A DNA stretch of 38,135 nucleotides from Chthonomonadaceae bacterium. GTDB lineage: Bacteria > Armatimonadota > Chthonomonadetes > Chthonomonadales > Chthonomonadaceae. The notes under the pieces are model-generated. The model was not told where the DNA came from and searched no databases. It was given only the letters and a program-made list of their open reading frames with translations. The stretch lies in assembly GCA_043757795.1 (NCBI GenBank), contig JAYVOT010001068.1, positions 1 to 38,135 on the forward strand, given 5' to 3'. Position 1 is the first letter of the stretch. The number at the start of each line of letters is the position of its first letter. This document shows, in pieces, positions 315 to 33,296 of this stretch. The position numbers were made by a program, and so were the translations under genes.

Positions 315-1031
315 ATGCACTATAAGAAAGCTCCTATAACTGAAGCTATCATAGATATACAAGTGGCGTTGCCCGAGTCGACGACACTTGAGCTACTTGA
401 AGATTTCCAAAAGAAAATACCAGAGTTTAGTGAAAAACAAAATGTAACCCTTAATAAAATTTTAATGCAACAGGACAATTCGCCAAATGTGGAGCAAATT
501 CACACTGGTTATCAGTTTATCAAGGAGGATAAAAAGAGGATTGTGCAGGTCGCTCAACACGGTTTTGCTTACTTGTGGCTAGCTCCCTATGAAAATTGGG
601 AAGCGTTTTCGACAGAGGCAAAATCCAAGTGGGATATTTATAGGAATCATTTTAATCCAGGTGGCGTCAACCGAATCGCTCTGAGATACATCAATAGAAT
701 CGACATTCCTGAAAACAAGATAGATCTGAAGGAATATCTGCATACCGCGCCTGAAATTGCAAAAGGTTTGCCTCAACTCCTAGTCGGTTACTTCATGCAA
801 CTGACGTTGCCTATGGAAGAATTCCAGAGCATGGCAACAATCAAGCAAACGATAGTTCCTCCTCCTATCCCTCATGTGACATCGATTTTATTGGACATTG
901 AAACGTACAGAGACGTCGATGCGCCTCAGTCATCGCAAGAAATATGGGAAGCCTTCGAACAGTTGAGGGCAGCCAAAAATAAAGTATTCGAACACACGCT
1001 TACAGAAAAGACAAAGGAGTTTATCAAATGA
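315..1031 (+). CDS. TIGR04255-like uncharacterised protein (238 aa)
   Basis: Long ORF. The N-terminal K-APITEAIIDIQV pattern and ~240 aa size resemble the uncharacterised TIGR04255 family (recalled from memory, not searched). Its stop overlaps the next start (ATGA at 1028-1031). Confidence 0.7.
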   Translation: MHYKKAPITEAIIDIQVALPESTTLELLEDFQKKIPEFSEKQNVTLNKILMQQDNSPNVEQIHTGYQFIKEDKKRIVQVAQHGFAYLWLAPYENWEAFSTEAKSKWDIYRNHFNPGGVNRIALRYINRIDIPENKIDLKEYLHTAPEIAKGLPQLLVGYFMQLTLPMEEFQSMATIKQTIVPPPIPHVTSILLDIETYRDVDAPQSSQEIWEAFEQLRAAKNKVFEHTLTEKTKEFIK

Positions 1032-1600
1032 GTTTTCTTTGCCTCGGATATCGTCCACCTCAATCAAAAACTATTCCTGCTGCTAAAAGTGATGCTCATG
1101 TCAATAGCATTTTTAGCTCGCTCGATTCAGAATATCCAGGCTACATCGGCAGTCGACTTCCAGCTATCGATGAGAGCGAATTCATCCTGTTCTATACTCA
1201 AGCGACATCTCTGAAAAATCCTCCAAGTTCTGTTTTGTGGTTGCGGAAAGCCGGAGAGCGATTGTCTCAAATTTCACAGTTGAAAGAGGATTGGAATGAC
1301 GAAGGGGCGCTTCCGGTCTCTAAAAATGTGATCATGTTAGTATTCGATTTCATTACCGAGGTCGCTCAACGCGCTACAGGTGTCGAAGAGCTATTCACAC
1401 CCTCTATTTTTCCGACCATCGAGGGTGGAATCGAGCTTTATTGGAAAACTCTAGAACAACAAAGATCGCTCACGTTTTGTGATGGGACTGAAGCAGTGGA
1501 AGAGATGAAGCAACTCTTTGACGCCCATGCCGAGTTTCGGTTGACACCTCTGGAAGAAGCAGAAAAAATCGCTTTAGAGATGCTTCAATCACCCAGATAA
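1028..1600 (+). CDS. Hypothetical protein (190 aa), translationally coupled to upstream gene
   Basis: ATGA start/stop overlap with 315..1031. No family recognised. Confidence 0.65.
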   Translation: MSFLCLGYRPPQSKTIPAAKSDAHVNSIFSSLDSEYPGYIGSRLPAIDESEFILFYTQATSLKNPPSSVLWLRKAGERLSQISQLKEDWNDEGALPVSKNVIMLVFDFITEVAQRATGVEELFTPSIFPTIEGGIELYWKTLEQQRSLTFCDGTEAVEEMKQLFDAHAEFRLTPLEEAEKIALEMLQSPR

Positions 1601-1618
1601 AAGGGATCAGGCAACATA

Positions 1619-2098
1619 GTGTCTCAACCAGGCGAAGGATCGAAAGGATATGTATATCGCAGAGTTGCTTCAGAACACATTGACAAGCATACAGAAAATG
1701 TATCTCCTCAGGCATTTAGAGTAAGAGAAAACGAACAAGGACTATCGGTTTTTCGCGCGGATATAGCATCGCCTTACGATGTCATCAATCAACGCTTTCA
1801 GACTGCGGTCGAACTCTCTCAAGACGAAGGGTCAAAGAGGCGGCTCAAAGAGGCAGACTTTCTTAGAAATAATCCTGATGTCGAATCGATAATAAAGAAT
1901 CGAACTTTTTTAGTTGTTGCAATACCAATCGAAGAAATTGAGAAGATGGGGTTTCAATTTGGAGTTCTCGACGAAAATGGGCATCTGAATGTCGAAGGTT
2001 CTGTTTCGGAATTTAAGATGAATGCCCCACTACTGGCAAAACATTCGAGATTGTTGTCAGTAGAGGAATGTCTACGCAAGGAATTGATTTCATTTTAG
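1619..2098 (+). CDS. Hypothetical protein (159 aa)
   Basis: GTG start 18 nt after the upstream stop, same strand, with AAAGGGA upstream. No family recognised. Confidence 0.6.
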   Translation: MSQPGEGSKGYVYRRVASEHIDKHTENVSPQAFRVRENEQGLSVFRADIASPYDVINQRFQTAVELSQDEGSKRRLKEADFLRNNPDVESIIKNRTFLVVAIPIEEIEKMGFQFGVLDENGHLNVEGSVSEFKMNAPLLAKHSRLLSVEECLRKELISF

Positions 2099-3762: not shown

Positions 3763-3782
3763 ATGCAAAAATGAACAGTCGT

Positions 3783-4382
3783 TTATGATCTTGCGAACAG
3801 CAGTAAGCGTTTTACATCCCCTTGATCCGCCTCCTGCAAAGCCTTTATGTACTCCCGCCTCGTTTCGCTGCTCTCCGCTATCGAGCCTGAACCCCAGGAG
3901 AATCGCTTCTGTCCATTACGCTGTAAAAGAAGTTCGGCGGCAAGACGAGCATGGCGACCATTGCCATTTGGAAAGGGATGAATTACAACCAACTCATGGT
4001 GAAAACGAACCGCCAAGTCGTCCCAGGCGCTATCCATGTTTTTAATTTGATACAGAGTATTGCCGCAAAGCTGTTCCAGACGCATGGGTATCTGCTCGAA
4101 TGAGACGCCGATGTTCGTTTGCGCGCGACGAAACTGACCCGCCCAACGCCATGTGAATGAGAACATTTTTTGGTGGAGTTTGCGAAGCGAAACAACCTGC
4201 AGAATGTCTTTGTCCGCGCCCTTTGCCCGCTTCGCCCATTGCATCGCTTGAAAAATGTTTCGCGCCTCAAAATCGTTCAGTTCCGCCTGAAGCGTCAGGT
4301 TGGGGATGAGTCCTGCAATCGAATCCAGGTCTAATGGAGTGGCTCCATCCGGGGAATCGAAGTTCACTTGCCGACCTCCCAA
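3783..4382 (-). CDS. Fic/DOC family protein ('mobile mystery protein B' type)
   Basis: Fic motif HPFPNGNGRHARL. Size and pairing with an upstream HTH gene fit this type. The track start is TTG at 4382; GTG at 4367 (GTGA overlap with the upstream stop) is an alternative start. Confidence 0.9.
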   Translation of the reverse strand: MGGRQVNFDSPDGATPLDLDSIAGLIPNLTLQAELNDFEARNIFQAMQWAKRAKGADKDILQVVSLRKLHQKMFSFTWRWAGQFRRAQTNIGVSFEQIPMRLEQLCGNTLYQIKNMDSAWDDLAVRFHHELVVIHPFPNGNGRHARLAAELLLQRNGQKRFSWGSGSIAESSETRREYIKALQEADQGDVKRLLLFARS

Positions 4383-4840
4383 ATCTCGCGACTCAGCGTT
4401 CGAATCATCTCCTGAGCCAATTCGCGACGCTCACTCTCCACCTCATCCGGCAATCGACCCTGCGCTTCCAACCGCATGGAATGTTCGACGCGCTGAAGTT
4501 GTTCCTCCGCACGAATTTCCGCCTGTCGCATCAAAGTCGCTTCCAGAGAGTCGTTCGGGACGAGCGCGTAAACGAGCGTGCATTCCATCGCCTCTGCCAA
4601 CTTACGTAGGCTTTTGAGGGCGATGGTTTCCATCTCTTCAGAACGTTCCAATTTCGCGATCGTCGGTTGCGAGACTCCGACTCGTTGAGCCAACTGCAGG
4701 GAAGTCATCCCAAGAGCGTCGCGAATCTCTCTAACCCAGCCTTTGCGGGGTCGAGGTGTGCGTACGAACGGCTGAAGCGTTTTCAGCTGTTTGTCCAGTT
4801 GTCGTCTGCGTAAAGGATTTGCGGATAGATTTGATCTCAT
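4364..4840 (-). CDS. XRE-type HTH protein ('mobile mystery protein A' type)
   Basis: HTH segment GMTSLQLAQRVGVSQPTIAKLERSE. I chose ATG 4840 (MRSNLSANPL...) over the track start at 4906, which lies inside the promoter palindrome. Confidence 0.85.
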   Translation of the reverse strand: MRSNLSANPLRRRQLDKQLKTLQPFVRTPRPRKGWVREIRDALGMTSLQLAQRVGVSQPTIAKLERSEEMETIALKSLRKLAEAMECTLVYALVPNDSLEATLMRQAEIRAEEQLQRVEHSMRLEAQGRLPDEVESERRELAQEMIRTLSREIWEVGK

Positions 4841-4851
4841 AATATAGCCTT

Positions 4852-4884
4852 TAGGGTATTGAAATATAATAATATTATACCCTA
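4852..4884 (-). promoter_or_regulatory. Promoter/operator of the HTH-Fic operon: 8-bp inverted repeat TAGGGTAT-N17-ATACCCTA overlapping a TATAAT -10 box
   Basis: On the minus strand this reads ccttgTAGGGTATAATattattatatttcaATACCCTAaagg, 12 nt upstream of ATG 4840. TATAAT is at 4874..4879. Confidence 0.55.
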
Positions 4885-5378
4885 CAAGGTATAATTTCGT
4901 GTACATATTTCCTTAAACAGAGACTCCCAAGATTAAAGGACTTGCACAATCATAAGTCGGGAATATCGCTCCTTATTGGGATCGTCAAGTCAATCTCTTA
5001 ATTATGAGCGTTATGGTTTAAACTGTATGTAACTATTGAGACTACGTGCGTATTTACGCCAGTGTTCTCACGCATTGCCCCTAGTTGTCACAATTGCAAG
5101 TGAAATCATATTAAATATTAACTTTTCAAAAAATAGTTGCCAATAAGGCAAAAATAGTTAAAACGACCCTAGTATTTTCTTGCGAAGCAGAGTAGTCTAT
5201 CTTTATTAGCGGATACGTCGACTTGAACGAGCAACGATTGCAGAAAGCATGGGCAGGCGGGTTTTCAATTTGAATTTCCTCTCACTCTCTCGCTGTTGAA
5301 CTAACATGGATCAGCAAGCGACACCAGCAACACAACTTATTCAGTTCAATATTGAACTCATTTCAAAGGAGAATTTGC

Positions 5379-7891: not shown

Positions 7892-7920
7892 CGCCCCCCG
7901 CCAAAACTTGGCGGGGGGCG
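7892..7920. terminator. Bidirectional rho-independent terminator between the convergent 573-aa gene and secA
   Basis: CGCCCCCCGCCAA-aac-TTGGCGGGGGGCG stem. It is followed by gttttcgttt on the secA strand. Confidence 0.8.
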
Positions 7921-7940
7921 TCTCTGCAAATCCAACTCAA

Positions 7941-12471: not shown

Positions 12472-12504
12472 CTGACAATCGCACTACGCGAAGAATGGAA
12501 CGAC

Positions 12505-13560
12505 ATGACTGTGACTGAAGCGCAGGTTCGGGAGGCTTTGAAAGCGGTTCAAGACCCCGACCTGCATAAAGATATCGTAACTCTGGGGTTCGTGAAAGAC
12601 GTTTTGATCGAAGGAGGATTCGTCTCCTTCAAGATCGAATTGACGACGCCCGCCTGTCCGGTGAAAGACTTGTTGAAAAATCAAGCGCACGATGCGGTGA
12701 CGGCGCTCCCTGGAGTCGAGCGCGTCGAAATCGAAATGACCGCTCGCGTGCAGGGGCGAACCGGACCTGCAGAGGAGATGTTGCCGGGAGTTCGGCATGT
12801 CATCGCGATCGCAAGCGGAAAGGGGGGCGTCGGCAAAAGCACACTCTCCGTTAATCTCGCAGTCGCCCTCGCGCAGACGGGCGCAAAAGTCGCGCTTTTG
12901 GATGCGGACATTTACGGACCTACGATTCCGCTGATGATGGGAAACAAGCAACGCCCGCTGATGACTCAGACTGAAACGGGAACGAAGATCGTCCCGTTAT
13001 TGGCGCACGGCGTTCTGACGATGTCGCTCGGATCCCTGCTCGAACCGGATAAAGCGGTCGCCTGGCGGGGACCAATGGTGGCAGGCGCCGTCCGACAACT
13101 CCTCGGCGACGTGCTATGGGGCGAACAAGACTACCTCCTTGTGGATCTTCCTCCCGGCACGGGCGACGCCCCGATGTCGCTCGCGCAACTCGTCCCTCTT
13201 TCCGGCGTCGTCATCGTGATGACCCCCCAACAGGTAGCGCAGGAGATCGCAAACAAGTCGATTTTGATGTTTCGAATGTTGGAGCAGACTCAGAAAAAAT
13301 CGATCCCGATTCTGGGGATCGTCGAGAATATGAGCGGCTCGATTTTCGGAACAGGCGGCGGGGAGAGCGCGGCTGAGCGCCTGAAAGTCCCGTTCTTGGG
13401 GCGTATTCCCCTCGATTCTACGATTTGCGAGGGCGGCGACGCCGGACAACCTGTGACTGTGAGCGACAAAGAGGGCGACTCCGCGAAACGCTTCCGGGAG
13501 ATCGCCTCCCAACTCGCCGCTCAACTGAGCATCTTGCGCTATGAGGAGCAGGAGGGATAG
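12505..13560 (+). CDS. apbC: Mrp/ApbC/NBP35 family Fe-S cluster carrier ATPase
   Basis: N-terminal DUF59-like VQDPDLHKDIVTLGFV, deviant Walker A IASGKGGVGKST, and the LLVDLPPGTGD motif. Confidence 0.93.
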   Translation: MTVTEAQVREALKAVQDPDLHKDIVTLGFVKDVLIEGGFVSFKIELTTPACPVKDLLKNQAHDAVTALPGVERVEIEMTARVQGRTGPAEEMLPGVRHVIAIASGKGGVGKSTLSVNLAVALAQTGAKVALLDADIYGPTIPLMMGNKQRPLMTQTETGTKIVPLLAHGVLTMSLGSLLEPDKAVAWRGPMVAGAVRQLLGDVLWGEQDYLLVDLPPGTGDAPMSLAQLVPLSGVVIVMTPQQVAQEIANKSILMFRMLEQTQKKSIPILGIVENMSGSIFGTGGGESAAERLKVPFLGRIPLDSTICEGGDAGQPVTVSDKEGDSAKRFREIASQLAAQLSILRYEEQEG

Positions 13561-13580
13561 GCGGTTTCCCTCATCCCCTA

Positions 13581-13612
13581 GTCCCTCCTGCCGAAGCTTC
13601 GGGAGGAGGGAC
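13581..13612. terminator. Near-perfect palindromic hairpin between convergent apbC and the DinB-like gene
   Basis: gtccctcctgccgaagc/gcttcgggaggagggac, 16/17 complementary, centred on AAGCTT. Confidence 0.5.
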
Positions 13613-13708
13613 GAGATTGCATATCGGGAGTATTTTCAAGGCGCGCCGGGCGCTTATATAGTCGGGTTTTTGCCCCAACGTCAACAACGGCGGGCGCGCC
13701 AAACGCCC

Positions 13709-14233
13709 CTACTCTTTTCGCCACACGCCCCACACGTTCTCTTCCTCCCACTCCTCGTCAAGCTCTTGCCCGGCGACGCGAAACGCAAGAGTCATCACGC
13801 CGTAGTGTCCGCTCTCATGCCAGAGCATGTGTTGCAGGAAGAAAGCCGGGTGGTCATAGGGACCTGCTTGCGTCGCTCCCGAATCGATCAGTTCCCGCAC
13901 CACGTCGCCGACTGCTTTGCCGCTCAAGGTGAGTTGCTTTTTGATCTCATTTAAGTCCGTGATCGCCGTCCAATCGTCCCCGTCATTTGTATATGTTGCT
14001 CCCAGAGGCTCGACGCTCTTCGCGGAAACTTCCTTGAGCCAGCCATAGCGACACTGGTGAATGTGGCAAAGATACTCGCTAATCGTTGAGCCGTCGGGCG
14101 CCGCCTTGAAACCCTTCTCTGCTTCGCCGACCCTTTTGCAAAGATTTCCCAATATGCGAACATGCCGATCCCACGACTCCAAAAACGCCTCCATCGCAAC
14201 CCGCAAACTGTTGGAACTCTCTATTCCGCTCAT
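13709..14233 (-). CDS. DinB/YfiT-like superfamily protein
   Basis: 174-aa ORF. The C-terminal LWHESGHYGVMTLAFRVAG resembles the DinB-family H-x-x-x-H-x-G motif. Family call is by eye. Confidence 0.7.
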   Translation of the reverse strand: MSGIESSNSLRVAMEAFLESWDRHVRILGNLCKRVGEAEKGFKAAPDGSTISEYLCHIHQCRYGWLKEVSAKSVEPLGATYTNDGDDWTAITDLNEIKKQLTLSGKAVGDVVRELIDSGATQAGPYDHPAFFLQHMLWHESGHYGVMTLAFRVAGQELDEEWEEENVWGVWRKE

Positions 14234-14422
14234 TGCTGTCTCCTTCCGGAAATTGAAACATCCTAAAATGTCATTATATGCCTTGCGCTCGCAACTCGTC
14301 CTGCTGCTTGCATCCGACCCCGTGACAAATTAGACAGGTTTACCGGTTTATCCTTCCTGTTCAGGACGATTAGCTTTTGGAAAAACGCCTCTCGATCTCA
14401 TCGAAAAGGCTAAAACAACGCC

Positions 14423-14453
14423 AAAAAAAGCGCTCGATTGCGGCGCTTTTTTT
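14423..14453. terminator. Orphan bidirectional terminator-like hairpin (A7-GCGC...GCGC-T7) in a divergent intergenic region
   Basis: aaaaaaagcgctcgattgcggcgcttttttt. The GC stem is short, and no annotated gene ends here. Confidence 0.4.
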
Positions 14454-14815
14454 GACATTCGCTATCCTTTGTAAACAGGATTCCCAGAGATAAATTCCCG
14501 CTCTCGGCGGCGTATCACTGTCAGCGCTTCGCACAGGAGGGAGGCTTCCGGATCGTTTGCGATGCACAGACAGCGCGAAGCGCTACAGTATCAGAGTTTT
14601 AACACCCTGGGAATTTGATTGCCGCATATTTCAGCCGCCTCTCATGCAATCCGGGTTCAAAGCGCCGGACTACGTGAATTTTGCCAGTATAATTGAGTCT
14701 ATTATTTTGGAGCGTTGCCTTAGCCCACAAAAGCCTGCTCACATCGACTTCCCGAAGTAGACGACCAGGCAATCTCGTTCGTATTAACTGTATTCTACTA
14801 ACGCAGGAGTGACAT

Positions 14816-15649
14816 ATGAGCCATATTTGGTTGATCACGGGATGTTCGTCAGGGTTCGGATATGAGTTAGCTTTAAAGGCGGCGGAGGCGGGAGATAAGG
14901 TGATAGCGACCGCTCGCAACATCGAATCGCTAAACGAACTTGCCGAATTGCACCCGGACAGTCTAACCGCGATGACATTAGATGTGACGAATCCGGAGCA
15001 GGTGAAAAAGGTTGTTTCAGAGGCCGCAGAAATATACCGTGGTATCGATGTTGTCGTGAATAACGCGGGTTACGGGCTAATCGGGGCGCTTGAGGAGTAT
15101 GACGAGGCACAGATAGTACGCAGTTTTGAAACTAATTTCTTCGGAACCTTGCGCGTGATGCGAGCCGTTCTCCCGATCTTCAGGGAACAAAAAAGCGGAC
15201 ATTTCATCAACATGTCCGCTATCGCAGGCTTCGAAAATCATCCCGGTTTCAGCGTCTACGGAGGCGCAAAGGCGGCTCTCGACTCCGCATCAGATGCCTT
15301 GAAAGAGGAAGTCGCGCCATTGGGAATTAAGGTCACCGTCGTCGTGCCGGGTCCCTTTCGCACAGACTTCATTTCACGGTCGCTTGATAAAACTGAGGTC
15401 AAGCTACCGGACTACACCAGAACAAGCGGCAAGTTCCAAAAAATATTGGAGTCGATAGACGGCAAGCAACAGGGCGATCCCGAAAAAGCGGCGGAGATCA
15501 TCGTGCGAATGGTGAAGGACGGCAAGGCTCCCTCTCGGCTTTTCCTCGGAAAATATGCGATGGACAAAGCGCGAAACAAGATGAGGGCGATAGAAAGAGA
15601 CTTGCAGGAGTGGGAGGCGGAATCGTTGAGCGCGGATTTCGCGCTCTGA
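14816..15649 (+). CDS. Short-chain dehydrogenase/reductase (SDR) family oxidoreductase
   Basis: AGGAG RBS. ITGCSSGFG (TGxxxGxG), NNAG, and the YGGAK (YxxxK) catalytic motif. Confidence 0.92.
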   Translation: MSHIWLITGCSSGFGYELALKAAEAGDKVIATARNIESLNELAELHPDSLTAMTLDVTNPEQVKKVVSEAAEIYRGIDVVVNNAGYGLIGALEEYDEAQIVRSFETNFFGTLRVMRAVLPIFREQKSGHFINMSAIAGFENHPGFSVYGGAKAALDSASDALKEEVAPLGIKVTVVVPGPFRTDFISRSLDKTEVKLPDYTRTSGKFQKILESIDGKQQGDPEKAAEIIVRMVKDGKAPSRLFLGKYAMDKARNKMRAIERDLQEWEAESLSADFAL

Positions 15650-15795
15650 TATCTCGCGGGGCTACGCCTCATGTAGACAGATATAGCGAATTTTTGCCGA
15701 CTGTCACTAGCGAGAGCCGGGCAATAAATTACCCGGATATCTGGCGTTTTGTCTCCGTGCAACAAATTACACGGCTCGAAGGCGTTCCGCATAGC

Positions 15796-15845
15796 GTCCT
15801 TCGGCCGCGATGCAAGCGCCTCCGGCGCTCCCGTGTCCGAAGGAC
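15796..15845. terminator. Nested stem-loop between the convergent SDR and sulfatase-like genes
   Basis: GTCCTTCGG...CCGAAGGAC encloses GCGCC-tcc-GGCGC. Confidence 0.35.
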
Positions 15846-15929
15846 GCCCATTGACTGGACGAGGGTTTTCAATCCCCGTCTCAATAGCGCTCCGCCAATT
15901 GTCTCGTCTTCACAGACTTGAACGTTGCA

Positions 15930-17321
15930 TTACTCTCGGCTCTCGGCTTGCAACTTTGCGGCGGCGCCCGGGTCACCGATATGCATCGTATCGTAGGCTT
16001 GTTGGGAGGTATTGAAGGGGCCGACTCCCGTGTGCCCATGCCAATCCCCCTGCGTGAGCATCGGGTTGACGATCCCTTCCTCGCCCTCTCTCTTTGCGAT
16101 CCACGCCTCCATCTTTCCTCTTAGCAGGGCGACTACTTCCGGTTGCGACGCCGCCAAATTGCTGTTCTCCGCCGGGTCCTCAATCAAATTGTAGAGTTCG
16201 ACCTCCGGCTTGAAGTGGAAATCCGGCTCAAGCGCGACAATCAGTTTCCAATGAGGAGTGCGCCAGCCGTGCTTTCGCATCCAGGTGCATTCGGTAATGT
16301 AGAATTCGCTTTCATGCGAAGCGACTTCGCCGTTTGCCAACGGAATCAGGCTAACGCCCTCGAACTTCTCAGCGCACTCGATTCCGGCAAGCTCAAGCAA
16401 GGTGGGAACAAGGTCTTTGTGTTGCGAAAAACCAGACACTCGTTTGCCGGCGGGAACTTTGCCGGGATAGCGAATGATGAGCGGGACATGAAGCGTGTTG
16501 TCATAAATCCCATGATGATCGAACCAGCAATCGTGGTCGTAAAGAGTTTCCCCGTGATCCCCGTTCAAAACCACAATAGTCTCATCGAGAATTCCGTGCG
16601 TTTCGAGAGCGGTGAATATACGCTGAATGCATGCGTCCATATAGGCGATAGCGCCGTCGTATTGCGCGATCACATAGTCTTTGTCGCTAATTCCGGGCGG
16701 CATCCAACTTGCGAAAAAATCGCGAAAGGGCTTGAAACTCATCACCGGTTCCATGCTTTTGTTGGCGGGATCGCTCTCGTTTCCGTGATAAAACATTCGT
16801 TCGTAAGGTGCGGGGGGCAGATAGGGCGCATGCGGATCCATGTGGCGCAAGAAGAGAAAGAAAGGCGCTTCGCCTGCGGCAAGCCTGTCCAATTCCGGCA
16901 ACGCCGTTTCGTTCAAGCTCTCCGCCTTCGGGCTTCTGCCCTCGTTCCAGCTTCCCCAACTTGGATAGTCCAGGTACTTGTCGAAGCCGCGCGAACTCGG
17001 ATTGCCCGTGAATCCGACGCACGTCGTGGCGTATCCCGCCTCTCGCAAAATCTCCGGGAGCGTTTTGACCTCCGCCCTCAACGGACCCTGATGCCGGAGC
17101 GCCACTACGTGCGTCCCGAAAGCGTCCCGACCCGTCAACATGGAGGCGTAGGCGCTAGTCGTGGGGATGTGAGGGCTGAAATTCCGTTCAAATAGGGTTC
17201 CAGTTTTCGCGAATCGATCAATATGCGGCGTCGTTTGCCGATGATAACCGTAGCAAGACATGTGGTCTGCAAGCAAGCTGTCTATTCCGAACAGCACGAT
17301 ATTGGGTCTCTTATCTGACAT
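15930..17321 (-). CDS. Sulfatase-like (alkaline-phosphatase superfamily) hydrolase/transferase
   Basis: GGAGG RBS. N-terminal PNIVLFGIDSLLADHMSCYG...TPHIDRFA...MLTGR is typical of the sulfatase fold. The expected C/S-x-P-x-R position reads T-T-S-A-Y. Confidence 0.9.
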   Translation of the reverse strand: MSDKRPNIVLFGIDSLLADHMSCYGYHRQTTPHIDRFAKTGTLFERNFSPHIPTTSAYASMLTGRDAFGTHVVALRHQGPLRAEVKTLPEILREAGYATTCVGFTGNPSSRGFDKYLDYPSWGSWNEGRSPKAESLNETALPELDRLAAGEAPFFLFLRHMDPHAPYLPPAPYERMFYHGNESDPANKSMEPVMSFKPFRDFFASWMPPGISDKDYVIAQYDGAIAYMDACIQRIFTALETHGILDETIVVLNGDHGETLYDHDCWFDHHGIYDNTLHVPLIIRYPGKVPAGKRVSGFSQHKDLVPTLLELAGIECAEKFEGVSLIPLANGEVASHESEFYITECTWMRKHGWRTPHWKLIVALEPDFHFKPEVELYNLIEDPAENSNLAASQPEVVALLRGKMEAWIAKREGEEGIVNPMLTQGDWHGHTGVGPFNTSQQAYDTMHIGDPGAAAKLQAESRE

Positions 17322-17702
17322 GCGTCAGTGTTCCTCCTAAAAGTGGGTTCGCCTTTCGGCATTAGGGAGACAATTCGCCCTGCTCAATCAAAAATCCTGT
17401 ATTGCCCGAATCATCCTTGATTTGACGTTGTCGGCAACTCATCCCGCTCTCAAGGCGCATATCCCGAAGTCCTGCTTCGAATCCTGATTAACTCCTACCT
17501 GCTCTACTAGTCCGGAATTTTTGAATCATTCTAATACACGGAATTTCAGTCAGGAGACACTGAATTAAATCCAACAAGCGCATGTTGGCAGTCGTGGGAA
17601 CTGCGCCGGAGCGTCCATTCGATCCAGTATATCCTGTCTAAATTTAGGAGTTTATGTTCTTTATAAGGCAGTGGGTTAGAAACCTGTTTTTGGCGCATCT
17701 TC

Positions 17703-18080
17703 TTATCTGGGAGGTTCTATTATTCGGAGGAAAGAGTCATCCATAACAGCGCGTGCTATTTTATTTTGAAAACGTTTGTCGTCTGGCTTGTCATCTTCTT
17801 CTCTTTTGTTTACCAATACAAATACTACTTTATACTGGCATTGAGTATGATTACCCACTATGTAAAATCTGTGCCGTCCACGCCTGTATTTTTTGACGTT
17901 GCTAATTTTTAAGGAAGACCAGTCACTAACGGTTTTGAGCTTTGAGCCTAATGCTTTCCCTTCTTCAACGGTATCTTCATCTGCCAGTCGTGCTATGTCT
18001 AGCACTAGGTTAGACTGTCCAAGTCTGCAAATTTCTACGATGCTCTTATTCGCAGTGGGGTTACTTAGTAGTTGGCACAC
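17703..18080 (-). CDS. RelE/ParE-like putative toxin (125 aa from GTG; the track ORF starts at TTG 18113)
   Basis: C-terminal YRRGRHRFYIVG...YKVVFVLVNKRE pattern is RelE/ParE-like by eye. GAGGAAGGTG SD precedes GTG 18080. Overlaps the upstream gene by 20 nt. Confidence 0.6.
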   Translation of the reverse strand: MCQLLSNPTANKSIVEICRLGQSNLVLDIARLADEDTVEEGKALGSKLKTVSDWSSLKISNVKKYRRGRHRFYIVGNHTQCQYKVVFVLVNKREEDDKPDDKRFQNKIARAVMDDSFLRIIEPPR

Positions 18081-18582
18081 GAATGACACCTTCCTCTGAT
18101 AGGGAATTTTCAATTAACAATTGGAAGTCATGTGAAGACTCAAGTTCAGCATCTTCGAAATCGTCAATATTGATACGGCGAATATTGAATTGAGCCATTT
18201 TTCGTAGGAACGAAAGAGCGCCTGATATTTGACCGTAAGACAAAGTAGGTAATTCGGTCTTGATTTGGTCGTAGCCAATATATTCGTCAAGTATTTCAAC
18301 GAATTTGTACAAGAAAACGGGTTGATTGTCACTCCCTAAAATATATGGTAAACACCCTGTTTGCGGATTAATTACTATATCTCCTCCACAATCCTCACTC
18401 ATATGCGTATAAAACGATATTATATTAGCAGTCGCAAAATGAGTGTTAAATGAATCAATTTTTTGTGAATCAAGAACAGTTGTAACCGCCTTGCTGATAA
18501 CTCCTAAATCAATAAATCTAGGCGCTTTAAAAGTGGTAATTTGTTCATACTGATAGGGTGGTTCGTTTTGCAACGGATTCAT
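18061..18582 (-). CDS. DUF433-like domain protein (173 aa), putative antitoxin or adaptor
   Basis: IVINPQTGCLPYILGSDNQPV...YDQIKTELPTLSYGQISGALSFL matches my memory of the DUF433 pattern. ATGA overlap with the upstream gene. Confidence 0.7.
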   Translation of the reverse strand: MNPLQNEPPYQYEQITTFKAPRFIDLGVISKAVTTVLDSQKIDSFNTHFATANIISFYTHMSEDCGGDIVINPQTGCLPYILGSDNQPVFLYKFVEILDEYIGYDQIKTELPTLSYGQISGALSFLRKMAQFNIRRINIDDFEDAELESSHDFQLLIENSLSEEGVIRVPTTK

Positions 18583-18905
18583 TTTTGCGATGCTTTCAAA
18601 TGTTCGTGCGCTTCTGGCGTAAGCAAGTCCTCTGGTGATTTGATCACGCCGAATAATGCTTCGTATTGACTTAAAGCGTCATTCAAACTCTTGGCAAGCC
18701 TTTTAACATGTCCTGGGGTCATGTATACTCGCACCAATCCCTGAGCCACTGCTGGAGTTTCAGGATTCATCAGCCCATAGCGAACAACTATTTCATCCGA
18801 TGATATTGCTATACTATTAACATTAGCATAAATAGACGGTTCGGTTGGTGTTGGTGTAATTTTTGTTTCGGTTAAAGAAAGACGGGCATCAGGTTGATCA
18901 CTCAT
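18579..18905 (-). CDS. DUF3467-like small protein (108 aa)
   Basis: GGAG is 6-7 nt before ATG 18905 (MSDQPD...). IYANVNSIAISSDEIVVRYG...RVYMTPGHVKRLAKSLNDALSQYEALFG resembles DUF3467. The track start at 18968 is less likely. Confidence 0.7.
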   Translation of the reverse strand: MSDQPDARLSLTETKITPTPTEPSIYANVNSIAISSDEIVVRYGLMNPETPAVAQGLVRVYMTPGHVKRLAKSLNDALSQYEALFGVIKSPEDLLTPEAHEHLKASQK

Positions 18906-19231
18906 GACACACTCCAAATAGAATACATTAAGTATTGGATTGACTACTTTATATCTTGAGATACACACAAATCATGCCAATCTACCTCATAAATTATGAC
19001 ACAACAATTGTATATCTTCATATACGATTGAAAGCAGGACTCAACCCAACAATGAATAGGGAGGTCAATTGACCTCCCTATTCATTGTTGGGTTGAGTCC
19101 TGCTTTCAATCGTATATGAAGATATACAATTGTTGTGTCATAATTTATGAGGTAGATTGGCATGATTTGTGTGTATCTCAAGATATAAAGTAGTCAATCC
19201 AATACTTAATGTATTCTATTTGGAGTGTGTC

Positions 19232-19558
19232 ATGAGTGATCAACCTGATGCCCGTCTTTCTTTAACCGAAACAAAAATTACACCAACACCAACCGAACCG
19301 TCTATTTATGCTAATGTTAATAGTATAGCAATATCATCGGATGAAATAGTTGTTCGCTATGGGCTGATGAATCCTGAAACTCCAGCAGTGGCTCAGGGAT
19401 TGGTGCGAGTATACATGACCCCAGGACATGTTAAAAGGCTTGCCAAGAGTTTGAATGACGCTTTAAGTCAATACGAAGCATTATTCGGCGTGATCAAATC
19501 ACCAGAGGACTTGCTTACGCCAGAAGCGCACGAACATTTGAAAGCATCGCAAAAATGA
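19232..19558 (+). CDS. DUF3467-like small protein (mirror copy of 18579..18905)
   Basis: Exact reverse-complement copy. Not independent evidence. Confidence 0.7.
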   Translation: MSDQPDARLSLTETKITPTPTEPSIYANVNSIAISSDEIVVRYGLMNPETPAVAQGLVRVYMTPGHVKRLAKSLNDALSQYEALFGVIKSPEDLLTPEAHEHLKASQK

Positions 19559-20076
19559 ATCCGTTGCAAAACGAACCACCCTATCAGTATGAACAAATTA
19601 CCACTTTTAAAGCGCCTAGATTTATTGATTTAGGAGTTATCAGCAAGGCGGTTACAACTGTTCTTGATTCACAAAAAATTGATTCATTTAACACTCATTT
19701 TGCGACTGCTAATATAATATCGTTTTATACGCATATGAGTGAGGATTGTGGAGGAGATATAGTAATTAATCCGCAAACAGGGTGTTTACCATATATTTTA
19801 GGGAGTGACAATCAACCCGTTTTCTTGTACAAATTCGTTGAAATACTTGACGAATATATTGGCTACGACCAAATCAAGACCGAATTACCTACTTTGTCTT
19901 ACGGTCAAATATCAGGCGCTCTTTCGTTCCTACGAAAAATGGCTCAATTCAATATTCGCCGTATCAATATTGACGATTTCGAAGATGCTGAACTTGAGTC
20001 TTCACATGACTTCCAATTGTTAATTGAAAATTCCCTATCAGAGGAAGGTGTCATTCGTGTGCCAACTACTAAGTAA
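19555..20076 (+). CDS. DUF433-like domain protein (mirror copy of 18061..18582)
   Basis: Exact reverse-complement copy; the protein is identical in the track. Confidence 0.7.
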   Translation: MNPLQNEPPYQYEQITTFKAPRFIDLGVISKAVTTVLDSQKIDSFNTHFATANIISFYTHMSEDCGGDIVINPQTGCLPYILGSDNQPVFLYKFVEILDEYIGYDQIKTELPTLSYGQISGALSFLRKMAQFNIRRINIDDFEDAELESSHDFQLLIENSLSEEGVIRVPTTK

Positions 20077-20434
20077 CCCCACTGCGAATAAGAGCATCGT
20101 AGAAATTTGCAGACTTGGACAGTCTAACCTAGTGCTAGACATAGCACGACTGGCAGATGAAGATACCGTTGAAGAAGGGAAAGCATTAGGCTCAAAGCTC
20201 AAAACCGTTAGTGACTGGTCTTCCTTAAAAATTAGCAACGTCAAAAAATACAGGCGTGGACGGCACAGATTTTACATAGTGGGTAATCATACTCAATGCC
20301 AGTATAAAGTAGTATTTGTATTGGTAAACAAAAGAGAAGAAGATGACAAGCCAGACGACAAACGTTTTCAAAATAAAATAGCACGCGCTGTTATGGATGA
20401 CTCTTTCCTCCGAATAATAGAACCTCCCAGATAA
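20057..20434 (+). CDS. RelE/ParE-like putative toxin (mirror copy of 17703..18080)
   Basis: Exact reverse-complement copy. Confidence 0.6.
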   Translation: MCQLLSNPTANKSIVEICRLGQSNLVLDIARLADEDTVEEGKALGSKLKTVSDWSSLKISNVKKYRRGRHRFYIVGNHTQCQYKVVFVLVNKREEDDKPDDKRFQNKIARAVMDDSFLRIIEPPR

Positions 20435-20815
20435 GAAGATGCGCCAAAAACAGGTTTCTAACCCACTGCCTTATAAAGAACATAAACTCCTAAATTTAGA
20501 CAGGATATACTGGATCGAATGGACGCTCCGGCGCAGTTCCCACGACTGCCAACATGCGCTTGTTGGATTTAATTCAGTGTCTCCTGACTGAAATTCCGTG
20601 TATTAGAATGATTCAAAAATTCCGGACTAGTAGAGCAGGTAGGAGTTAATCAGGATTCGAAGCAGGACTTCGGGATATGCGCCTTGAGAGCGGGATGAGT
20701 TGCCGACAACGTCAAATCAAGGATGATTCGGGCAATACAGGATTTTTGATTGAGCAGGGCGAATTGTCTCCCTAATGCCGAAAGGCGAACCCACTTTTAG
20801 GAGGAACACTGACGC

Positions 20816-22207
20816 ATGTCAGATAAGAGACCCAATATCGTGCTGTTCGGAATAGACAGCTTGCTTGCAGACCACATGTCTTGCTACGGTTATCATCGGC
20901 AAACGACGCCGCATATTGATCGATTCGCGAAAACTGGAACCCTATTTGAACGGAATTTCAGCCCTCACATCCCCACGACTAGCGCCTACGCCTCCATGTT
21001 GACGGGTCGGGACGCTTTCGGGACGCACGTAGTGGCGCTCCGGCATCAGGGTCCGTTGAGGGCGGAGGTCAAAACGCTCCCGGAGATTTTGCGAGAGGCG
21101 GGATACGCCACGACGTGCGTCGGATTCACGGGCAATCCGAGTTCGCGCGGCTTCGACAAGTACCTGGACTATCCAAGTTGGGGAAGCTGGAACGAGGGCA
21201 GAAGCCCGAAGGCGGAGAGCTTGAACGAAACGGCGTTGCCGGAATTGGACAGGCTTGCCGCAGGCGAAGCGCCTTTCTTTCTCTTCTTGCGCCACATGGA
21301 TCCGCATGCGCCCTATCTGCCCCCCGCACCTTACGAACGAATGTTTTATCACGGAAACGAGAGCGATCCCGCCAACAAAAGCATGGAACCGGTGATGAGT
21401 TTCAAGCCCTTTCGCGATTTTTTCGCAAGTTGGATGCCGCCCGGAATTAGCGACAAAGACTATGTGATCGCGCAATACGACGGCGCTATCGCCTATATGG
21501 ACGCATGCATTCAGCGTATATTCACCGCTCTCGAAACGCACGGAATTCTCGATGAGACTATTGTGGTTTTGAACGGGGATCACGGGGAAACTCTTTACGA
21601 CCACGATTGCTGGTTCGATCATCATGGGATTTATGACAACACGCTTCATGTCCCGCTCATCATTCGCTATCCCGGCAAAGTTCCCGCCGGCAAACGAGTG
21701 TCTGGTTTTTCGCAACACAAAGACCTTGTTCCCACCTTGCTTGAGCTTGCCGGAATCGAGTGCGCTGAGAAGTTCGAGGGCGTTAGCCTGATTCCGTTGG
21801 CAAACGGCGAAGTCGCTTCGCATGAAAGCGAATTCTACATTACCGAATGCACCTGGATGCGAAAGCACGGCTGGCGCACTCCTCATTGGAAACTGATTGT
21901 CGCGCTTGAGCCGGATTTCCACTTCAAGCCGGAGGTCGAACTCTACAATTTGATTGAGGACCCGGCGGAGAACAGCAATTTGGCGGCGTCGCAACCGGAA
22001 GTAGTCGCCCTGCTAAGAGGAAAGATGGAGGCGTGGATCGCAAAGAGAGAGGGCGAGGAAGGGATCGTCAACCCGATGCTCACGCAGGGGGATTGGCATG
22101 GGCACACGGGAGTCGGCCCCTTCAATACCTCCCAACAAGCCTACGATACGATGCATATCGGTGACCCGGGCGCCGCCGCAAAGTTGCAAGCCGAGAGCCG
22201 AGAGTAA
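20816..22207 (+). CDS. Sulfatase-like hydrolase/transferase (mirror copy of 15930..17321)
   Basis: Exact reverse-complement copy; the protein is identical in the track. Confidence 0.9.
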   Translation: MSDKRPNIVLFGIDSLLADHMSCYGYHRQTTPHIDRFAKTGTLFERNFSPHIPTTSAYASMLTGRDAFGTHVVALRHQGPLRAEVKTLPEILREAGYATTCVGFTGNPSSRGFDKYLDYPSWGSWNEGRSPKAESLNETALPELDRLAAGEAPFFLFLRHMDPHAPYLPPAPYERMFYHGNESDPANKSMEPVMSFKPFRDFFASWMPPGISDKDYVIAQYDGAIAYMDACIQRIFTALETHGILDETIVVLNGDHGETLYDHDCWFDHHGIYDNTLHVPLIIRYPGKVPAGKRVSGFSQHKDLVPTLLELAGIECAEKFEGVSLIPLANGEVASHESEFYITECTWMRKHGWRTPHWKLIVALEPDFHFKPEVELYNLIEDPAENSNLAASQPEVVALLRGKMEAWIAKREGEEGIVNPMLTQGDWHGHTGVGPFNTSQQAYDTMHIGDPGAAAKLQAESRE

Positions 22208-22487
22208 TGCAACGTTCAAGTCTGTGAAGACGAGACAATTGGCGGAGCGCTATTGAGACGGGGATTGAAAACCCTCGTCCAGTCAATGGGCGTCCTTCGG
22301 ACACGGGAGCGCCGGAGGCGCTTGCATCGCGGCCGAAGGACGCTATGCGGAACGCCTTCGAGCCGTGTAATTTGTTGCACGGAGACAAAACGCCAGATAT
22401 CCGGGTAATTTATTGCCCGGCTCTCGCTAGTGACAGTCGGCAAAAATTCGCTATATCTGTCTACATGAGGCGTAGCCCCGCGAGATA

Positions 22488-23321
22488 TCAGAGCGCGAAA
22501 TCCGCGCTCAACGATTCCGCCTCCCACTCCTGCAAGTCTCTTTCTATCGCCCTCATCTTGTTTCGCGCTTTGTCCATCGCATATTTTCCGAGGAAAAGCC
22601 GAGAGGGAGCCTTGCCGTCCTTCACCATTCGCACGATGATCTCCGCCGCTTTTTCGGGATCGCCCTGTTGCTTGCCGTCTATCGACTCCAATATTTTTTG
22701 GAACTTGCCGCTTGTTCTGGTGTAGTCCGGTAGCTTGACCTCAGTTTTATCAAGCGACCGTGAAATGAAGTCTGTGCGAAAGGGACCCGGCACGACGACG
22801 GTGACCTTAATTCCCAATGGCGCGACTTCCTCTTTCAAGGCATCTGATGCGGAGTCGAGAGCCGCCTTTGCGCCTCCGTAGACGCTGAAACCGGGATGAT
22901 TTTCGAAGCCTGCGATAGCGGACATGTTGATGAAATGTCCGCTTTTTTGTTCCCTGAAGATCGGGAGAACGGCTCGCATCACGCGCAAGGTTCCGAAGAA
23001 ATTAGTTTCAAAACTGCGTACTATCTGTGCCTCGTCATACTCCTCAAGCGCCCCGATTAGCCCGTAACCCGCGTTATTCACGACAACATCGATACCACGG
23101 TATATTTCTGCGGCCTCTGAAACAACCTTTTTCACCTGCTCCGGATTCGTCACATCTAATGTCATCGCGGTTAGACTGTCCGGGTGCAATTCGGCAAGTT
23201 CGTTTAGCGATTCGATGTTGCGAGCGGTCGCTATCACCTTATCTCCCGCCTCCGCCGCCTTTAAAGCTAACTCATATCCGAACCCTGACGAACATCCCGT
23301 GATCAACCAAATATGGCTCAT
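22488..23321 (-). CDS. SDR family oxidoreductase (mirror copy of 14816..15649)
   Basis: Exact reverse-complement copy. Confidence 0.92.
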   Translation of the reverse strand: MSHIWLITGCSSGFGYELALKAAEAGDKVIATARNIESLNELAELHPDSLTAMTLDVTNPEQVKKVVSEAAEIYRGIDVVVNNAGYGLIGALEEYDEAQIVRSFETNFFGTLRVMRAVLPIFREQKSGHFINMSAIAGFENHPGFSVYGGAKAALDSASDALKEEVAPLGIKVTVVVPGPFRTDFISRSLDKTEVKLPDYTRTSGKFQKILESIDGKQQGDPEKAAEIIVRMVKDGKAPSRLFLGKYAMDKARNKMRAIERDLQEWEAESLSADFAL

Positions 23322-23683
23322 ATGTCACTCCTGCGTTAGTAGAATACAGTTAATACGAACGAGATTGCCTGGTCGTCTACTTCGGGAAGTCGATGTGAGC
23401 AGGCTTTTGTGGGCTAAGGCAACGCTCCAAAATAATAGACTCAATTATACTGGCAAAATTCACGTAGTCCGGCGCTTTGAACCCGGATTGCATGAGAGGC
23501 GGCTGAAATATGCGGCAATCAAATTCCCAGGGTGTTAAAACTCTGATACTGTAGCGCTTCGCGCTGTCTGTGCATCGCAAACGATCCGGAAGCCTCCCTC
23601 CTGTGCGAAGCGCTGACAGTGATACGCCGCCGAGAGCGGGAATTTATCTCTGGGAATCCTGTTTACAAAGGATAGCGAATGTC

Positions 23684-23714
23684 AAAAAAAGCGCCGCAAT
23701 CGAGCGCTTTTTTT
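23684..23714. terminator. Orphan bidirectional terminator-like hairpin (mirror of 14423..14453)
   Basis: Exact reverse-complement copy. Confidence 0.4.
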
Positions 23715-23903
23715 GGCGTTGTTTTAGCCTTTTCGATGAGATCGAGAGGCGTTTTTCCAAAAGCTAATCGTCCTGAACAGGAAGGATAAACCGGTAAACC
23801 TGTCTAATTTGTCACGGGGTCGGATGCAAGCAGCAGGACGAGTTGCGAGCGCAAGGCATATAATGACATTTTAGGATGTTTCAATTTCCGGAAGGAGACA
23901 GCA

Positions 23904-24428
23904 ATGAGCGGAATAGAGAGTTCCAACAGTTTGCGGGTTGCGATGGAGGCGTTTTTGGAGTCGTGGGATCGGCATGTTCGCATATTGGGAAATCTTTGCA
24001 AAAGGGTCGGCGAAGCAGAGAAGGGTTTCAAGGCGGCGCCCGACGGCTCAACGATTAGCGAGTATCTTTGCCACATTCACCAGTGTCGCTATGGCTGGCT
24101 CAAGGAAGTTTCCGCGAAGAGCGTCGAGCCTCTGGGAGCAACATATACAAATGACGGGGACGATTGGACGGCGATCACGGACTTAAATGAGATCAAAAAG
24201 CAACTCACCTTGAGCGGCAAAGCAGTCGGCGACGTGGTGCGGGAACTGATCGATTCGGGAGCGACGCAAGCAGGTCCCTATGACCACCCGGCTTTCTTCC
24301 TGCAACACATGCTCTGGCATGAGAGCGGACACTACGGCGTGATGACTCTTGCGTTTCGCGTCGCCGGGCAAGAGCTTGACGAGGAGTGGGAGGAAGAGAA
24401 CGTGTGGGGCGTGTGGCGAAAAGAGTAG
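23904..24428 (+). CDS. DinB/YfiT-like protein (mirror copy of 13709..14233)
   Basis: Exact reverse-complement copy. Confidence 0.7.
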   Translation: MSGIESSNSLRVAMEAFLESWDRHVRILGNLCKRVGEAEKGFKAAPDGSTISEYLCHIHQCRYGWLKEVSAKSVEPLGATYTNDGDDWTAITDLNEIKKQLTLSGKAVGDVVRELIDSGATQAGPYDHPAFFLQHMLWHESGHYGVMTLAFRVAGQELDEEWEEENVWGVWRKE

Positions 24429-24524
24429 GGGCGTTTGGCGCGCCCGCCGTTGTTGACGTTGGGGCAAAAACCCGACTATATAAGCGCCCGGCGCGCCTTG
24501 AAAATACTCCCGATATGCAATCTC

Positions 24525-24556
24525 GTCCCTCCTCCCGAAGCTTCGGCAGGAGGGAC
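24525..24556. terminator. Palindromic hairpin (mirror of 13581..13612)
   Basis: Exact reverse-complement copy. Confidence 0.5.
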
Positions 24557-24576
24557 TAGGGGATGAGGGAAACCGC

Positions 24577-25632
24577 CTATCCCTCCTGCTCCTCATAGCG
24601 CAAGATGCTCAGTTGAGCGGCGAGTTGGGAGGCGATCTCCCGGAAGCGTTTCGCGGAGTCGCCCTCTTTGTCGCTCACAGTCACAGGTTGTCCGGCGTCG
24701 CCGCCCTCGCAAATCGTAGAATCGAGGGGAATACGCCCCAAGAACGGGACTTTCAGGCGCTCAGCCGCGCTCTCCCCGCCGCCTGTTCCGAAAATCGAGC
24801 CGCTCATATTCTCGACGATCCCCAGAATCGGGATCGATTTTTTCTGAGTCTGCTCCAACATTCGAAACATCAAAATCGACTTGTTTGCGATCTCCTGCGC
24901 TACCTGTTGGGGGGTCATCACGATGACGACGCCGGAAAGAGGGACGAGTTGCGCGAGCGACATCGGGGCGTCGCCCGTGCCGGGAGGAAGATCCACAAGG
25001 AGGTAGTCTTGTTCGCCCCATAGCACGTCGCCGAGGAGTTGTCGGACGGCGCCTGCCACCATTGGTCCCCGCCAGGCGACCGCTTTATCCGGTTCGAGCA
25101 GGGATCCGAGCGACATCGTCAGAACGCCGTGCGCCAATAACGGGACGATCTTCGTTCCCGTTTCAGTCTGAGTCATCAGCGGGCGTTGCTTGTTTCCCAT
25201 CATCAGCGGAATCGTAGGTCCGTAAATGTCCGCATCCAAAAGCGCGACTTTTGCGCCCGTCTGCGCGAGGGCGACTGCGAGATTAACGGAGAGTGTGCTT
25301 TTGCCGACGCCCCCCTTTCCGCTTGCGATCGCGATGACATGCCGAACTCCCGGCAACATCTCCTCTGCAGGTCCGGTTCGCCCCTGCACGCGAGCGGTCA
25401 TTTCGATTTCGACGCGCTCGACTCCAGGGAGCGCCGTCACCGCATCGTGCGCTTGATTTTTCAACAAGTCTTTCACCGGACAGGCGGGCGTCGTCAATTC
25501 GATCTTGAAGGAGACGAATCCTCCTTCGATCAAAACGTCTTTCACGAACCCCAGAGTTACGATATCTTTATGCAGGTCGGGGTCTTGAACCGCTTTCAAA
25601 GCCTCCCGAACCTGCGCTTCAGTCACAGTCAT
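24577..25632 (-). CDS. apbC: Mrp/ApbC Fe-S cluster carrier ATPase (mirror copy of 12505..13560)
   Basis: Exact reverse-complement copy. Confidence 0.93.
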   Translation of the reverse strand: MTVTEAQVREALKAVQDPDLHKDIVTLGFVKDVLIEGGFVSFKIELTTPACPVKDLLKNQAHDAVTALPGVERVEIEMTARVQGRTGPAEEMLPGVRHVIAIASGKGGVGKSTLSVNLAVALAQTGAKVALLDADIYGPTIPLMMGNKQRPLMTQTETGTKIVPLLAHGVLTMSLGSLLEPDKAVAWRGPMVAGAVRQLLGDVLWGEQDYLLVDLPPGTGDAPMSLAQLVPLSGVVIVMTPQQVAQEIANKSILMFRMLEQTQKKSIPILGIVENMSGSIFGTGGGESAAERLKVPFLGRIPLDSTICEGGDAGQPVTVSDKEGDSAKRFREIASQLAAQLSILRYEEQEG

Positions 25633-25665
25633 GTCGTTCCATTCTTCGCGTAGTGCGATTGTCAG

Positions 25666-30196: not shown

Positions 30197-30216
30197 TTGA
30201 GTTGGATTTGCAGAGA

Positions 30217-30245
30217 CGCCCCCCGCCAAGTTTTGGCGGGGGGCG
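30217..30245. terminator. Bidirectional terminator (mirror of 7892..7920)
   Basis: Exact reverse-complement copy. Confidence 0.8.
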
Positions 30246-33285: not shown

Positions 33286-33296
33286 AAGGCTATATT

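Follow-up and report, generated by a model that had tools for sequence, protein, structure and literature searches.

Three-component toxin-antitoxin modules such as PaaR2-PaaA2-ParE2, omega-epsilon-zeta and PasABC are ordered with a small first gene, then the antitoxin gene, then the gene for a RelE/ParE-type toxin. Toxin-antitoxin-chaperone (TAC) operons (HigB-HigA-SecB-like; PMC5105189, PMC9098466) also join a RelE-superfamily toxin and its antitoxin to a small third protein. Among antitoxins, the DUF433 protein VapB10 of the Synechocystis VapBC10 system was found experimentally to bind DNA (PMC3834315), and a 2009 survey of toxin-antitoxin systems predicted COG2442/DUF433 proteins to be antitoxins, with only PIN proteins as partners (PMC2701414). 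Here we describe a three-gene operon, g1-g2-g3, in a 38,135-nt contig of a Chthonomonadaceae bacterium (JAYVOT010001068.1; this whole stretch is hereafter the window). Its products are a DUF3467 protein (g1), a probable remote homologue of DUF433 (g2) and a protein with a predicted RelE/ParE fold (g3). We consider it likely that these translationally coupled genes form an operon of the type II toxin-antitoxin kind, acquired horizontally. The trio lies outside RelBE, ParDE, VapBC and TAC as currently defined and would represent a tripartite variant of type II systems, apparently undescribed.

The three genes are arranged head to tail, with every coordinate, overlap and ribosome-binding site given for them in an earlier note on this DNA proving exact on re-examination:

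18579..18905, minus strand: g1, 108 aa, ATG start; first gene of the operon, with GGAG at 18912-18915, 6 nt upstream
18061..18582, minus strand: g2, 173 aa; ATGA stop/start overlap (4 nt) onto g1
17703..18080, minus strand: g3, 125 aa, GTG start; GAGGAAGG 8 nt upstream, 20-nt overlap with g2

The longest possible open reading frame (ORF) for g3 starts at a TTG at 18113. In the family alignment, homologues of g3 start at an aligned 'MC(S/Q/L)(I/L)', and we therefore chose the GTG, which places the Met-Cys at the same position. Public gene calls on the contig (108, 173 and 125 aa) match g1, g2 and g3. Comparison of the window with the trio of a close relative (L003, 89% identical; trio loci are cited by L number) gave ratios of nonsynonymous to synonymous substitution (dN/dS) of 0.29 for g1, 0.22 for the core and tail of g2, and 0.13 for g3. 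The trio is thus under purifying selection and, with homologues in the same arrangement elsewhere, consists of real genes rather than chance ORFs.

Set beside RelBE, HigBA and ParDE, g3 shares the toxin fold, the size class and the basic isoelectric point (pI), its gene overlaps that of an upstream acidic partner, and the module is mobile and patchily distributed. However, g3 scores below threshold for every Pfam RelE/ParE-type model and carries invariant Cys2 and Cys81 together with an extra conserved C-terminal helix. Its partner g2 is not of the ribbon-helix-helix (RHH), Phd/YefM, Xre or RelB type, and a third gene is obligatory here. The likeness to VapB10-type antitoxins lies in the g2 core, which resembles the C-terminal helices of DUF433; in contrast to those antitoxins, g2 is paired with a RelE/ParE-fold rather than a PIN protein, is twice as long (165-190 aa), has a variable N-terminus and an acidic tail, and is sub-threshold for Pfam. 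As in TAC operons, three genes encode a RelE-superfamily toxin, an antitoxin whose C-terminal segment may depend on help, and a third, small protein, but the third protein here is a DUF3467 protein with no detectable sequence similarity to SecB, and it is encoded first, not last. The PaaR2-PaaA2-ParE2, omega-epsilon-zeta and PasABC systems match the trio in gene order and in having three components. Their first gene encodes a helix-turn-helix (HTH) or RHH repressor, whereas in the trio the HTH-like domain belongs to g2 and the first product, g1, is an acidic member of DUF3467.

The earlier note had not recognized the trio as a described toxin-antitoxin or defence architecture, and our searches agree. 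None of g1, g2 and g3 had a match in PADLOC-DB v2.0.0 at E ≤ 1, a full-text search of the literature returned no paper tying DUF3467 to toxin-antitoxin systems, a 2025 survey of RelE/ParE toxins is silent on both DUF3467 and DUF433, and the 2009 survey lists PIN partners only for COG2442.

We scanned 35 loci with local hidden Markov models of g1, g2 and g3. In every locus (35/35), the genes for g2 and g3 overlapped and ran side by side in one direction, and a g1 homologue lay directly upstream of g2 in 31. Three of the four loci lacking a called g1 were truncated at a contig edge; the fourth (L018) had a divergent ORF in its place, with a weak match to DUF3467 (E = 0.14). Three loci added after this census (L038-L040) were additional intact trios. 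The pairwise identity matrices of the three proteins were correlated (Pearson r = 0.87 to 0.91, Mantel p ∼5e-4), with r = 0.87 for g1 and g3, and the genes have therefore been inherited together. Conservation of the trio as a neighbourhood in other genomes, which the earlier note had put forward as a check, was thus borne out by the census. Across 19 distinct loci, the median pI was 5.8 for g1, 4.4 for g2 and 9.4 for g3; an acidic g2 with a basic g3 is the classic charge pattern of antitoxin and toxin. Together, the trio displays the genomic features by which type II systems are recognized: small, adjacent, co-directional genes, a putative antitoxin gene that precedes and overlaps the putative toxin gene, conserved pairing and a mobile, patchy distribution.

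A profile search with g3 retrieved 49 relatives, which are 120-139 aa long and lack Pfam domains. ParE_toxin (PF05016) was the sole Pfam family to recur below threshold among them (4/48, best E = 0.0066). The AlphaFold2 model of g3, built on the family alignment, was of high confidence (predicted local distance difference test [pLDDT], 88.5; predicted template modelling score, 0.84), with the topology beta-alpha-alpha-beta-beta-beta-alpha. A Foldseek search of the PDB with this model returned RelE, HigB, YoeB or ParE toxins for almost all of the top 50 matches, including PfiT, Mycobacterium tuberculosis RelE1 and RelE2, Thermus thermophilus RelE, the RelE domain of Cami1, HigB, HigB2, YoeB and ParE (probability 0.9-1.0; target-normalized template modelling [TM] score up to 0.72). 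Searches of PDB sequences with the g3 profile gave chance-level matches only, and a viral fold search with g3 was uninformative. The RelE/ParE likeness that the earlier note saw in the C-terminal pattern of g3 is thereby confirmed for the modelled fold, that of the RelE/ParE (BECR) superfamily, although the Pfam sequence threshold was not reached.

Ten residues are invariant in the g3 family (C2, A33, G68, R69, H70, R71, G76, C81, Y83 and K92), K64 and K89 are nearly so, and the extra C-terminal helix (residues 102-112) is conserved and includes F104 and Q105. The catalytic residues of RelE are K52/K54, R61 and R81. In the g3 model, a cluster formed by K64, R69-H70-R71, K89, K92 and Y83 would occupy the corresponding places: the GRHR.Y segment would correspond to the RelE G-Y-R-L-V-Y strand that bears R61, the preceding K/R to K52/K54, and K92 to R81. 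This basic cluster is the reason for regarding ribosome-dependent mRNA cleavage as the likeliest activity of g3.

The same architecture could instead deliver a ParE-type gyrase poison. The best single Foldseek match of g3 was PfiT of the PfiAT complex (E = 7.6e-4), several ParE structures were among the other matches, ParE_toxin was the only recurrent Pfam family, and the conserved extra C-terminal helix is of note since C-terminal regions are important for ParE activity. However, matches to RelE, HigB, YoeB and Cami1 were equally numerous and had better target-normalized TM scores (0.66-0.72), and the cluster of invariant R-H-R, K and Y is reminiscent of active sites of the RNase type. A match to ParE_toxin does not imply gyrase targeting either, because part of the Pfam ParE family has been reported to cleave mRNA (PMC11980606). 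We therefore regard gyrase poisoning as an unlikely activity of g3 and an mRNase as the better candidate.

Two further features of g3 were observed. Cys2 (∼18075-18077, minus strand, within the motif MCSIS.N) and Cys81 (∼17838-17840, minus strand) are invariant in 48/48 family members, alongside an invariant His70 and a mostly conserved His78; the feature could represent a disulfide or a metal site. We know of no RelE/ParE family with this invariant Cys2/Cys81 pattern. Separately, the g3 homologue at 6440-6682 of L002, a 65-kb long-read contig, is frameshifted after ∼54 residues, which reflects either decay of the toxin gene or a sequencing error at low (6×) coverage.

The g2 protein consists of an N-terminal third that varies, a conserved DUF433-like HTH core (approximately residues 79-133; consensus P.L.G.D..PV.LY.FVE..D...DYD....E.P.LSY.QI.GAI.FLRK..QFN) and an acidic C-terminal tail with the conserved pattern IDID..ED...RVL, which was modelled with low confidence. 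In an exhaustive profile search the family proved sharply bounded: it comprised 190 clusters (50% identity), of which 183 scored below 1e-10. DUF433 recurred as a sub-threshold Pfam match in 27 of 149 family members (best E = 0.0055), whereas other families appeared in two members at most. In L011, residues 86-116 of g2, within the conserved core, aligned to positions 25-55/56 of the DUF433/COG2442 profile PF04255 with 15.2 bits. Neither the window g2 nor its relatives reached the gathering threshold of that profile (23.6 bits). The core was modelled as beta-beta-alpha-alpha-alpha (pLDDT, 60-80), and its top Foldseek match, the only notable one in the PDB, was the DUF433 crystal structure 2GA1 (probability 0.69, target-normalized TM score 0.54), a beta-hairpin with a three-helix DNA-binding bundle. 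Taken together, these consistent signals from profiles and model suggest that g2 is probably a remote homologue of DUF433. The description of g2 as DUF433-like in the earlier note therefore stands as a likeness, but not as membership of the Pfam family.

In the comparison with L003, codons 2-65 of g2 (∼18388-18579, minus strand) had dN of 0.41 and dS of 0.20 (omega ∼2). We set aside diversifying selection on the g2 N-terminus: this ratio comes from the window/L003 pair only, omega was 0.25 for a second close pair, L002/L005, and the observation is a lead at most.

The g1 protein, which had been called DUF3467-like from its sequence pattern, exceeded the Pfam threshold for that family with a wide margin: residues 20-89 aligned to positions 22-91/92 of PF11950 (DUF3467) with 49.4 bits (gathering cutoff, 25; E = 4.9e-13). 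Most g1 homologues of other trios likewise exceeded this threshold, and g1 also matched PHROG 7919, a family of unknown function (E = 2.3e-8). Scans of g1 against NCBIfam and PADLOC returned nothing useful, and its profile found chance-level matches only among PDB sequences. As for SecB, g1 had no Pfam match to it at E ≤ 1, and an hhalign comparison of the g1 profile with Escherichia coli SecB (approximate sequence) was not significant (probability 0.2). The likeness to TAC systems, which the earlier note offered as speculation, thus gains no support from sequence. In one protein, P0125 (136 aa), the sole one of its kind, the C-terminal helix of a DUF3467 g1 is fused in frame to the g2 core. 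P0125 is probably a deletion derivative or a truncated call, and we did not use it as evidence of linkage.

The roles of g1 and g2 could also be divided the other way, with g1 the direct antitoxin or an essential co-antitoxin and g2 mainly a transcriptional regulator or adaptor. Such an arrangement would resemble PaaR-PaaA-ParE or omega-epsilon-zeta with the roles permuted. It would fit with g1 being small and acidic, as many antitoxins are, with its conservation in the trio being as strict as that of g2, with its co-divergence with g3 (r = 0.87) and with the location of the sole DNA-binding-like domain in g2. Nevertheless, the gene that overlaps a RelE/ParE toxin gene from upstream is normally that of the antitoxin, and here it is g2. 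In addition, g2 is more acidic than g1, its conserved, acidic, low-confidence tail fits a toxin-binding segment, and DUF3467, a broad Pfam/PHROG family, has members outside the trio as well. This division of roles is thus improbable, and we retain g2 as the putative antitoxin and g1 as its putative accessory.

Base composition sets the trio apart from its surroundings. The operon lies in a low-GC segment:

17322..19068, minus strand: low-GC segment with the operon, between the sulfatase gene and (in relatives) zwf

The genes of this segment had a G+C of 0.37-0.43, with 0.34 upstream of them and 0.46 downstream, compared with 0.52-0.58 in neighbouring genes. At third codon positions (GC3), g1, g2 and g3 had values of 0.32, 0.31 and 0.37, against 0.61-0.74 for the sulfatase, secA, mrp, short-chain dehydrogenase/reductase and GDSL genes. 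A similar step was seen in L039, where GC3 was 0.69 in zwf and 0.33-0.35 in the trio. The trio is therefore a compact low-GC insertion flanked by high-GC housekeeping genes. Hand counts in the earlier note of 21/60 G+C at 18361-18420 versus 38/60 at 13081-13140 were exact, and the horizontal origin that it read from the AT-rich block is supported by GC3 in both the window and L039.

Named hosts of the trio are uncultured or environmental lineages throughout and are scattered patchily across phyla: Armatimonadaceae (nearest to the window g3), an Acidobacteriota chromosome, Desulfosarcina, Desulfobacterium N47, a 'Proteobacteria' metagenome-assembled genome, Omnitrophota and Terriglobia. The trio was also present on two IMG/VR contigs. 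A tblastn search of PLSDB plasmids and GenBank phages with a consensus-like g3 gave no match. The genes within 5 kb of the module, given as a plain inventory, were as follows:

Tyrosine recombinases: L001, L008, L011, L012, L035
Insertion sequence (IS) transposases: L002, L016
AbiEii/AbiEi: L006
BrnT/CopG: L002
Methyltransferase-Mrr fusions: L012, L035
Large ATPase/tetratricopeptide-repeat ORF, STAND-like by eye only: L035
cI/Cro-like pair and M78 peptidase (prophage genes): L012

Some loci lay amid housekeeping genes (PGK/TIM/SecG in L001, zwf in L039). The neighbours listed are those usually seen around mobile toxin-antitoxin and defence genes. The least probable of the alternatives is that the trio is no addiction or defence module and that g3 is a non-toxic RelE-fold protein, RNA-binding or regulatory, acting with two partners in a housekeeping or regulatory function: the absence of matches in PADLOC and among sequenced plasmids and GenBank phages and the housekeeping surroundings in L001 and L039 would suit it, but the patchiness across phyla, the foreign base composition, the repeated adjacency to integrases, IS elements, toxin-antitoxin and restriction-type genes, the L002 frameshift (expected of a dispensable or toxic gene) and the invariance of the putative basic active-site residues of g3 all argue against it.

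On the toxin-antitoxin interpretation, g3 would be the toxin and, judged from its putative active site, would most likely cleave mRNA in a ribosome-dependent manner and so arrest translation. The g2 protein would be the antitoxin: its DUF433-like HTH core may bind DNA and autoregulate the operon, and its acidic, probably disordered C-terminal tail may wrap around and neutralize the basic g3. As the obligatory third partner, g1 probably stabilizes or modulates the antitoxin or the complex, with chaperone, co-regulator and trigger sensor as candidate roles; since g1 is mildly acidic, it is more likely to bind protein than DNA. The module as a whole probably stabilizes mobile DNA, serves in abortive-infection-type defence, or does both. 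What the data establish is the gene structure, the place of g1 in DUF3467, the modelled RelE/ParE fold of g3, the conservation and joint inheritance of the trio, its foreign base composition and its mobile or defence-type surroundings. We infer the toxicity and RNase activity of g3, neutralization and DNA binding by g2 and any role of g1.

Several observations weigh against this interpretation. A RelE/ParE fold alone cannot separate an RNase from a gyrase poison, and the best single structural match was the ParE-like PfiT. In the window, neither g2 nor g3 matched any entry in Pfam (E ≤ 1), NCBIfam or PADLOC. The hhalign comparison of the g3 profile with E. coli RelE (approximate sequence) was not significant (E = 0.26), and the placement of the catalytic residues therefore rests on topology and not on superposition. 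For g2, the AlphaFold2 model, made from six sequences, was poor overall (pLDDT, 51), the Foldseek match to 2GA1 had an E value of 0.45, and profile searches of PDB sequences yielded nothing beyond chance. Acidity extends to the DUF433-like core of g2 (pI 4.4), an uncommon property in a DNA binder. Lastly, a search upstream of g1 found no operator palindrome common to the family, a palindrome being significant in only 3 of 16 loci.

If g1-g2-g3 acts as proposed, a conserved module of ∼190 g2 clusters (at 50% identity), which Pfam, NCBIfam and PADLOC do not capture beyond the DUF3467 label of g1, would add an unclassified branch to the RelE/ParE toxins and extend DUF433-type antitoxins past PIN partners. 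DUF3467, which has no known function, would gain a setting in which it can be tested, that of an obligatory accessory to a toxin-antitoxin pair. A bolder proposal, which we advance only tentatively, is that DUF3467 proteins constitute a third-component class new to toxin-antitoxin or abortive-infection systems, as an antitoxin stabilizer or chaperone or as a sensor of an invader trigger, together with a new Cys2/Cys81 family of RelE/ParE-fold toxins and a DUF433-derived antitoxin. Were this so, mobile elements would have carried through uncultured phyla a tripartite system, not described before, that serves against phages or in addiction, and the trio would open a first route to the function of DUF3467 proteins at large.

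The window contains a second copy of the operon, and this copy is an artefact. The whole 38,135-nt NCBI contig is a single perfect foldback: the arms 2-19068 and 19069-38135 are 100% complementary with a spacer of 0 nt, the junction falling at 19068/19069. The features at the junction are as follows:

19232..20434, plus strand: mirror g1-g2-g3 on the artefactual second arm of the foldback, the ORFs being identical on both arms
19055..19082, no strand: natural 28-nt loopless palindrome AATAGGGAGGTCAATTGACCTCCCTATT, 149 nt upstream of g1

The arm length of AATAGGGAGGTCAATTGACCTCCCTATT was attained in 0 of 200 shuffles. Three metagenomic contigs of a close relative (L003, L039 and L040), with 89% identity to the window across the trio, carry the 28-nt palindrome un-mirrored and at an equal distance upstream of g1. 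Past the palindrome, these contigs continue into unrelated sequence and then the 3' end of zwf (G6PD), with no mirror image, and the true order is therefore zwf, hairpin, g1-g2-g3, sulfatase. The 38-kb palindrome is a foldback chimera, an assembly artefact seeded at the natural 28-nt palindrome. The trio copy at 19232..20434 is absent from the organism, all genes of the contig are artefactually doubled, and ∼19.1 kb of the sequence is real. The earlier note was right to treat the apparent divergent duplication as a mere consequence of the palindrome; the palindrome itself is moreover artefactual. The NCBI contig is hereby flagged as a foldback chimera of which about half is real, and the 'divergent duplicate operons' do not exist.

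Scans for tRNAs and Rfam families on the real arm detected no RNA genes, and a promoter and terminator scan gave nothing exceeding shuffled expectation. Elsewhere on the real arm, a direct repeat of 64 nt (88% identity) was found at 3699-3762 and 7932-7995. One copy is the 3' end of secA (...CWCGSGKKYKQCHGK*) and the other is a decayed duplicate (...WCGSGKNY*QCHGK*). The lower-GC 4.2 kb between the repeats (3763-7931) looks, from this arrangement, like an island integrated at the 3' end of secA. Within it, an ORF at 3783..4382 (minus strand), assigned to the Fic domain by eye from the motif HPFPNGNGRHAR, overlaps an upstream HTH ORF at 4364..4906 (minus strand); the putative pair resembles 'mobile mystery protein B/A' or a Fic toxin-antitoxin-like pair. 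A further three ORFs, of 238, 190 and 159 aa, overlap or lie close together at the opposite end of the real arm (315..2098, plus strand); their GC content is low (0.41-0.45), and they may be another foreign module.

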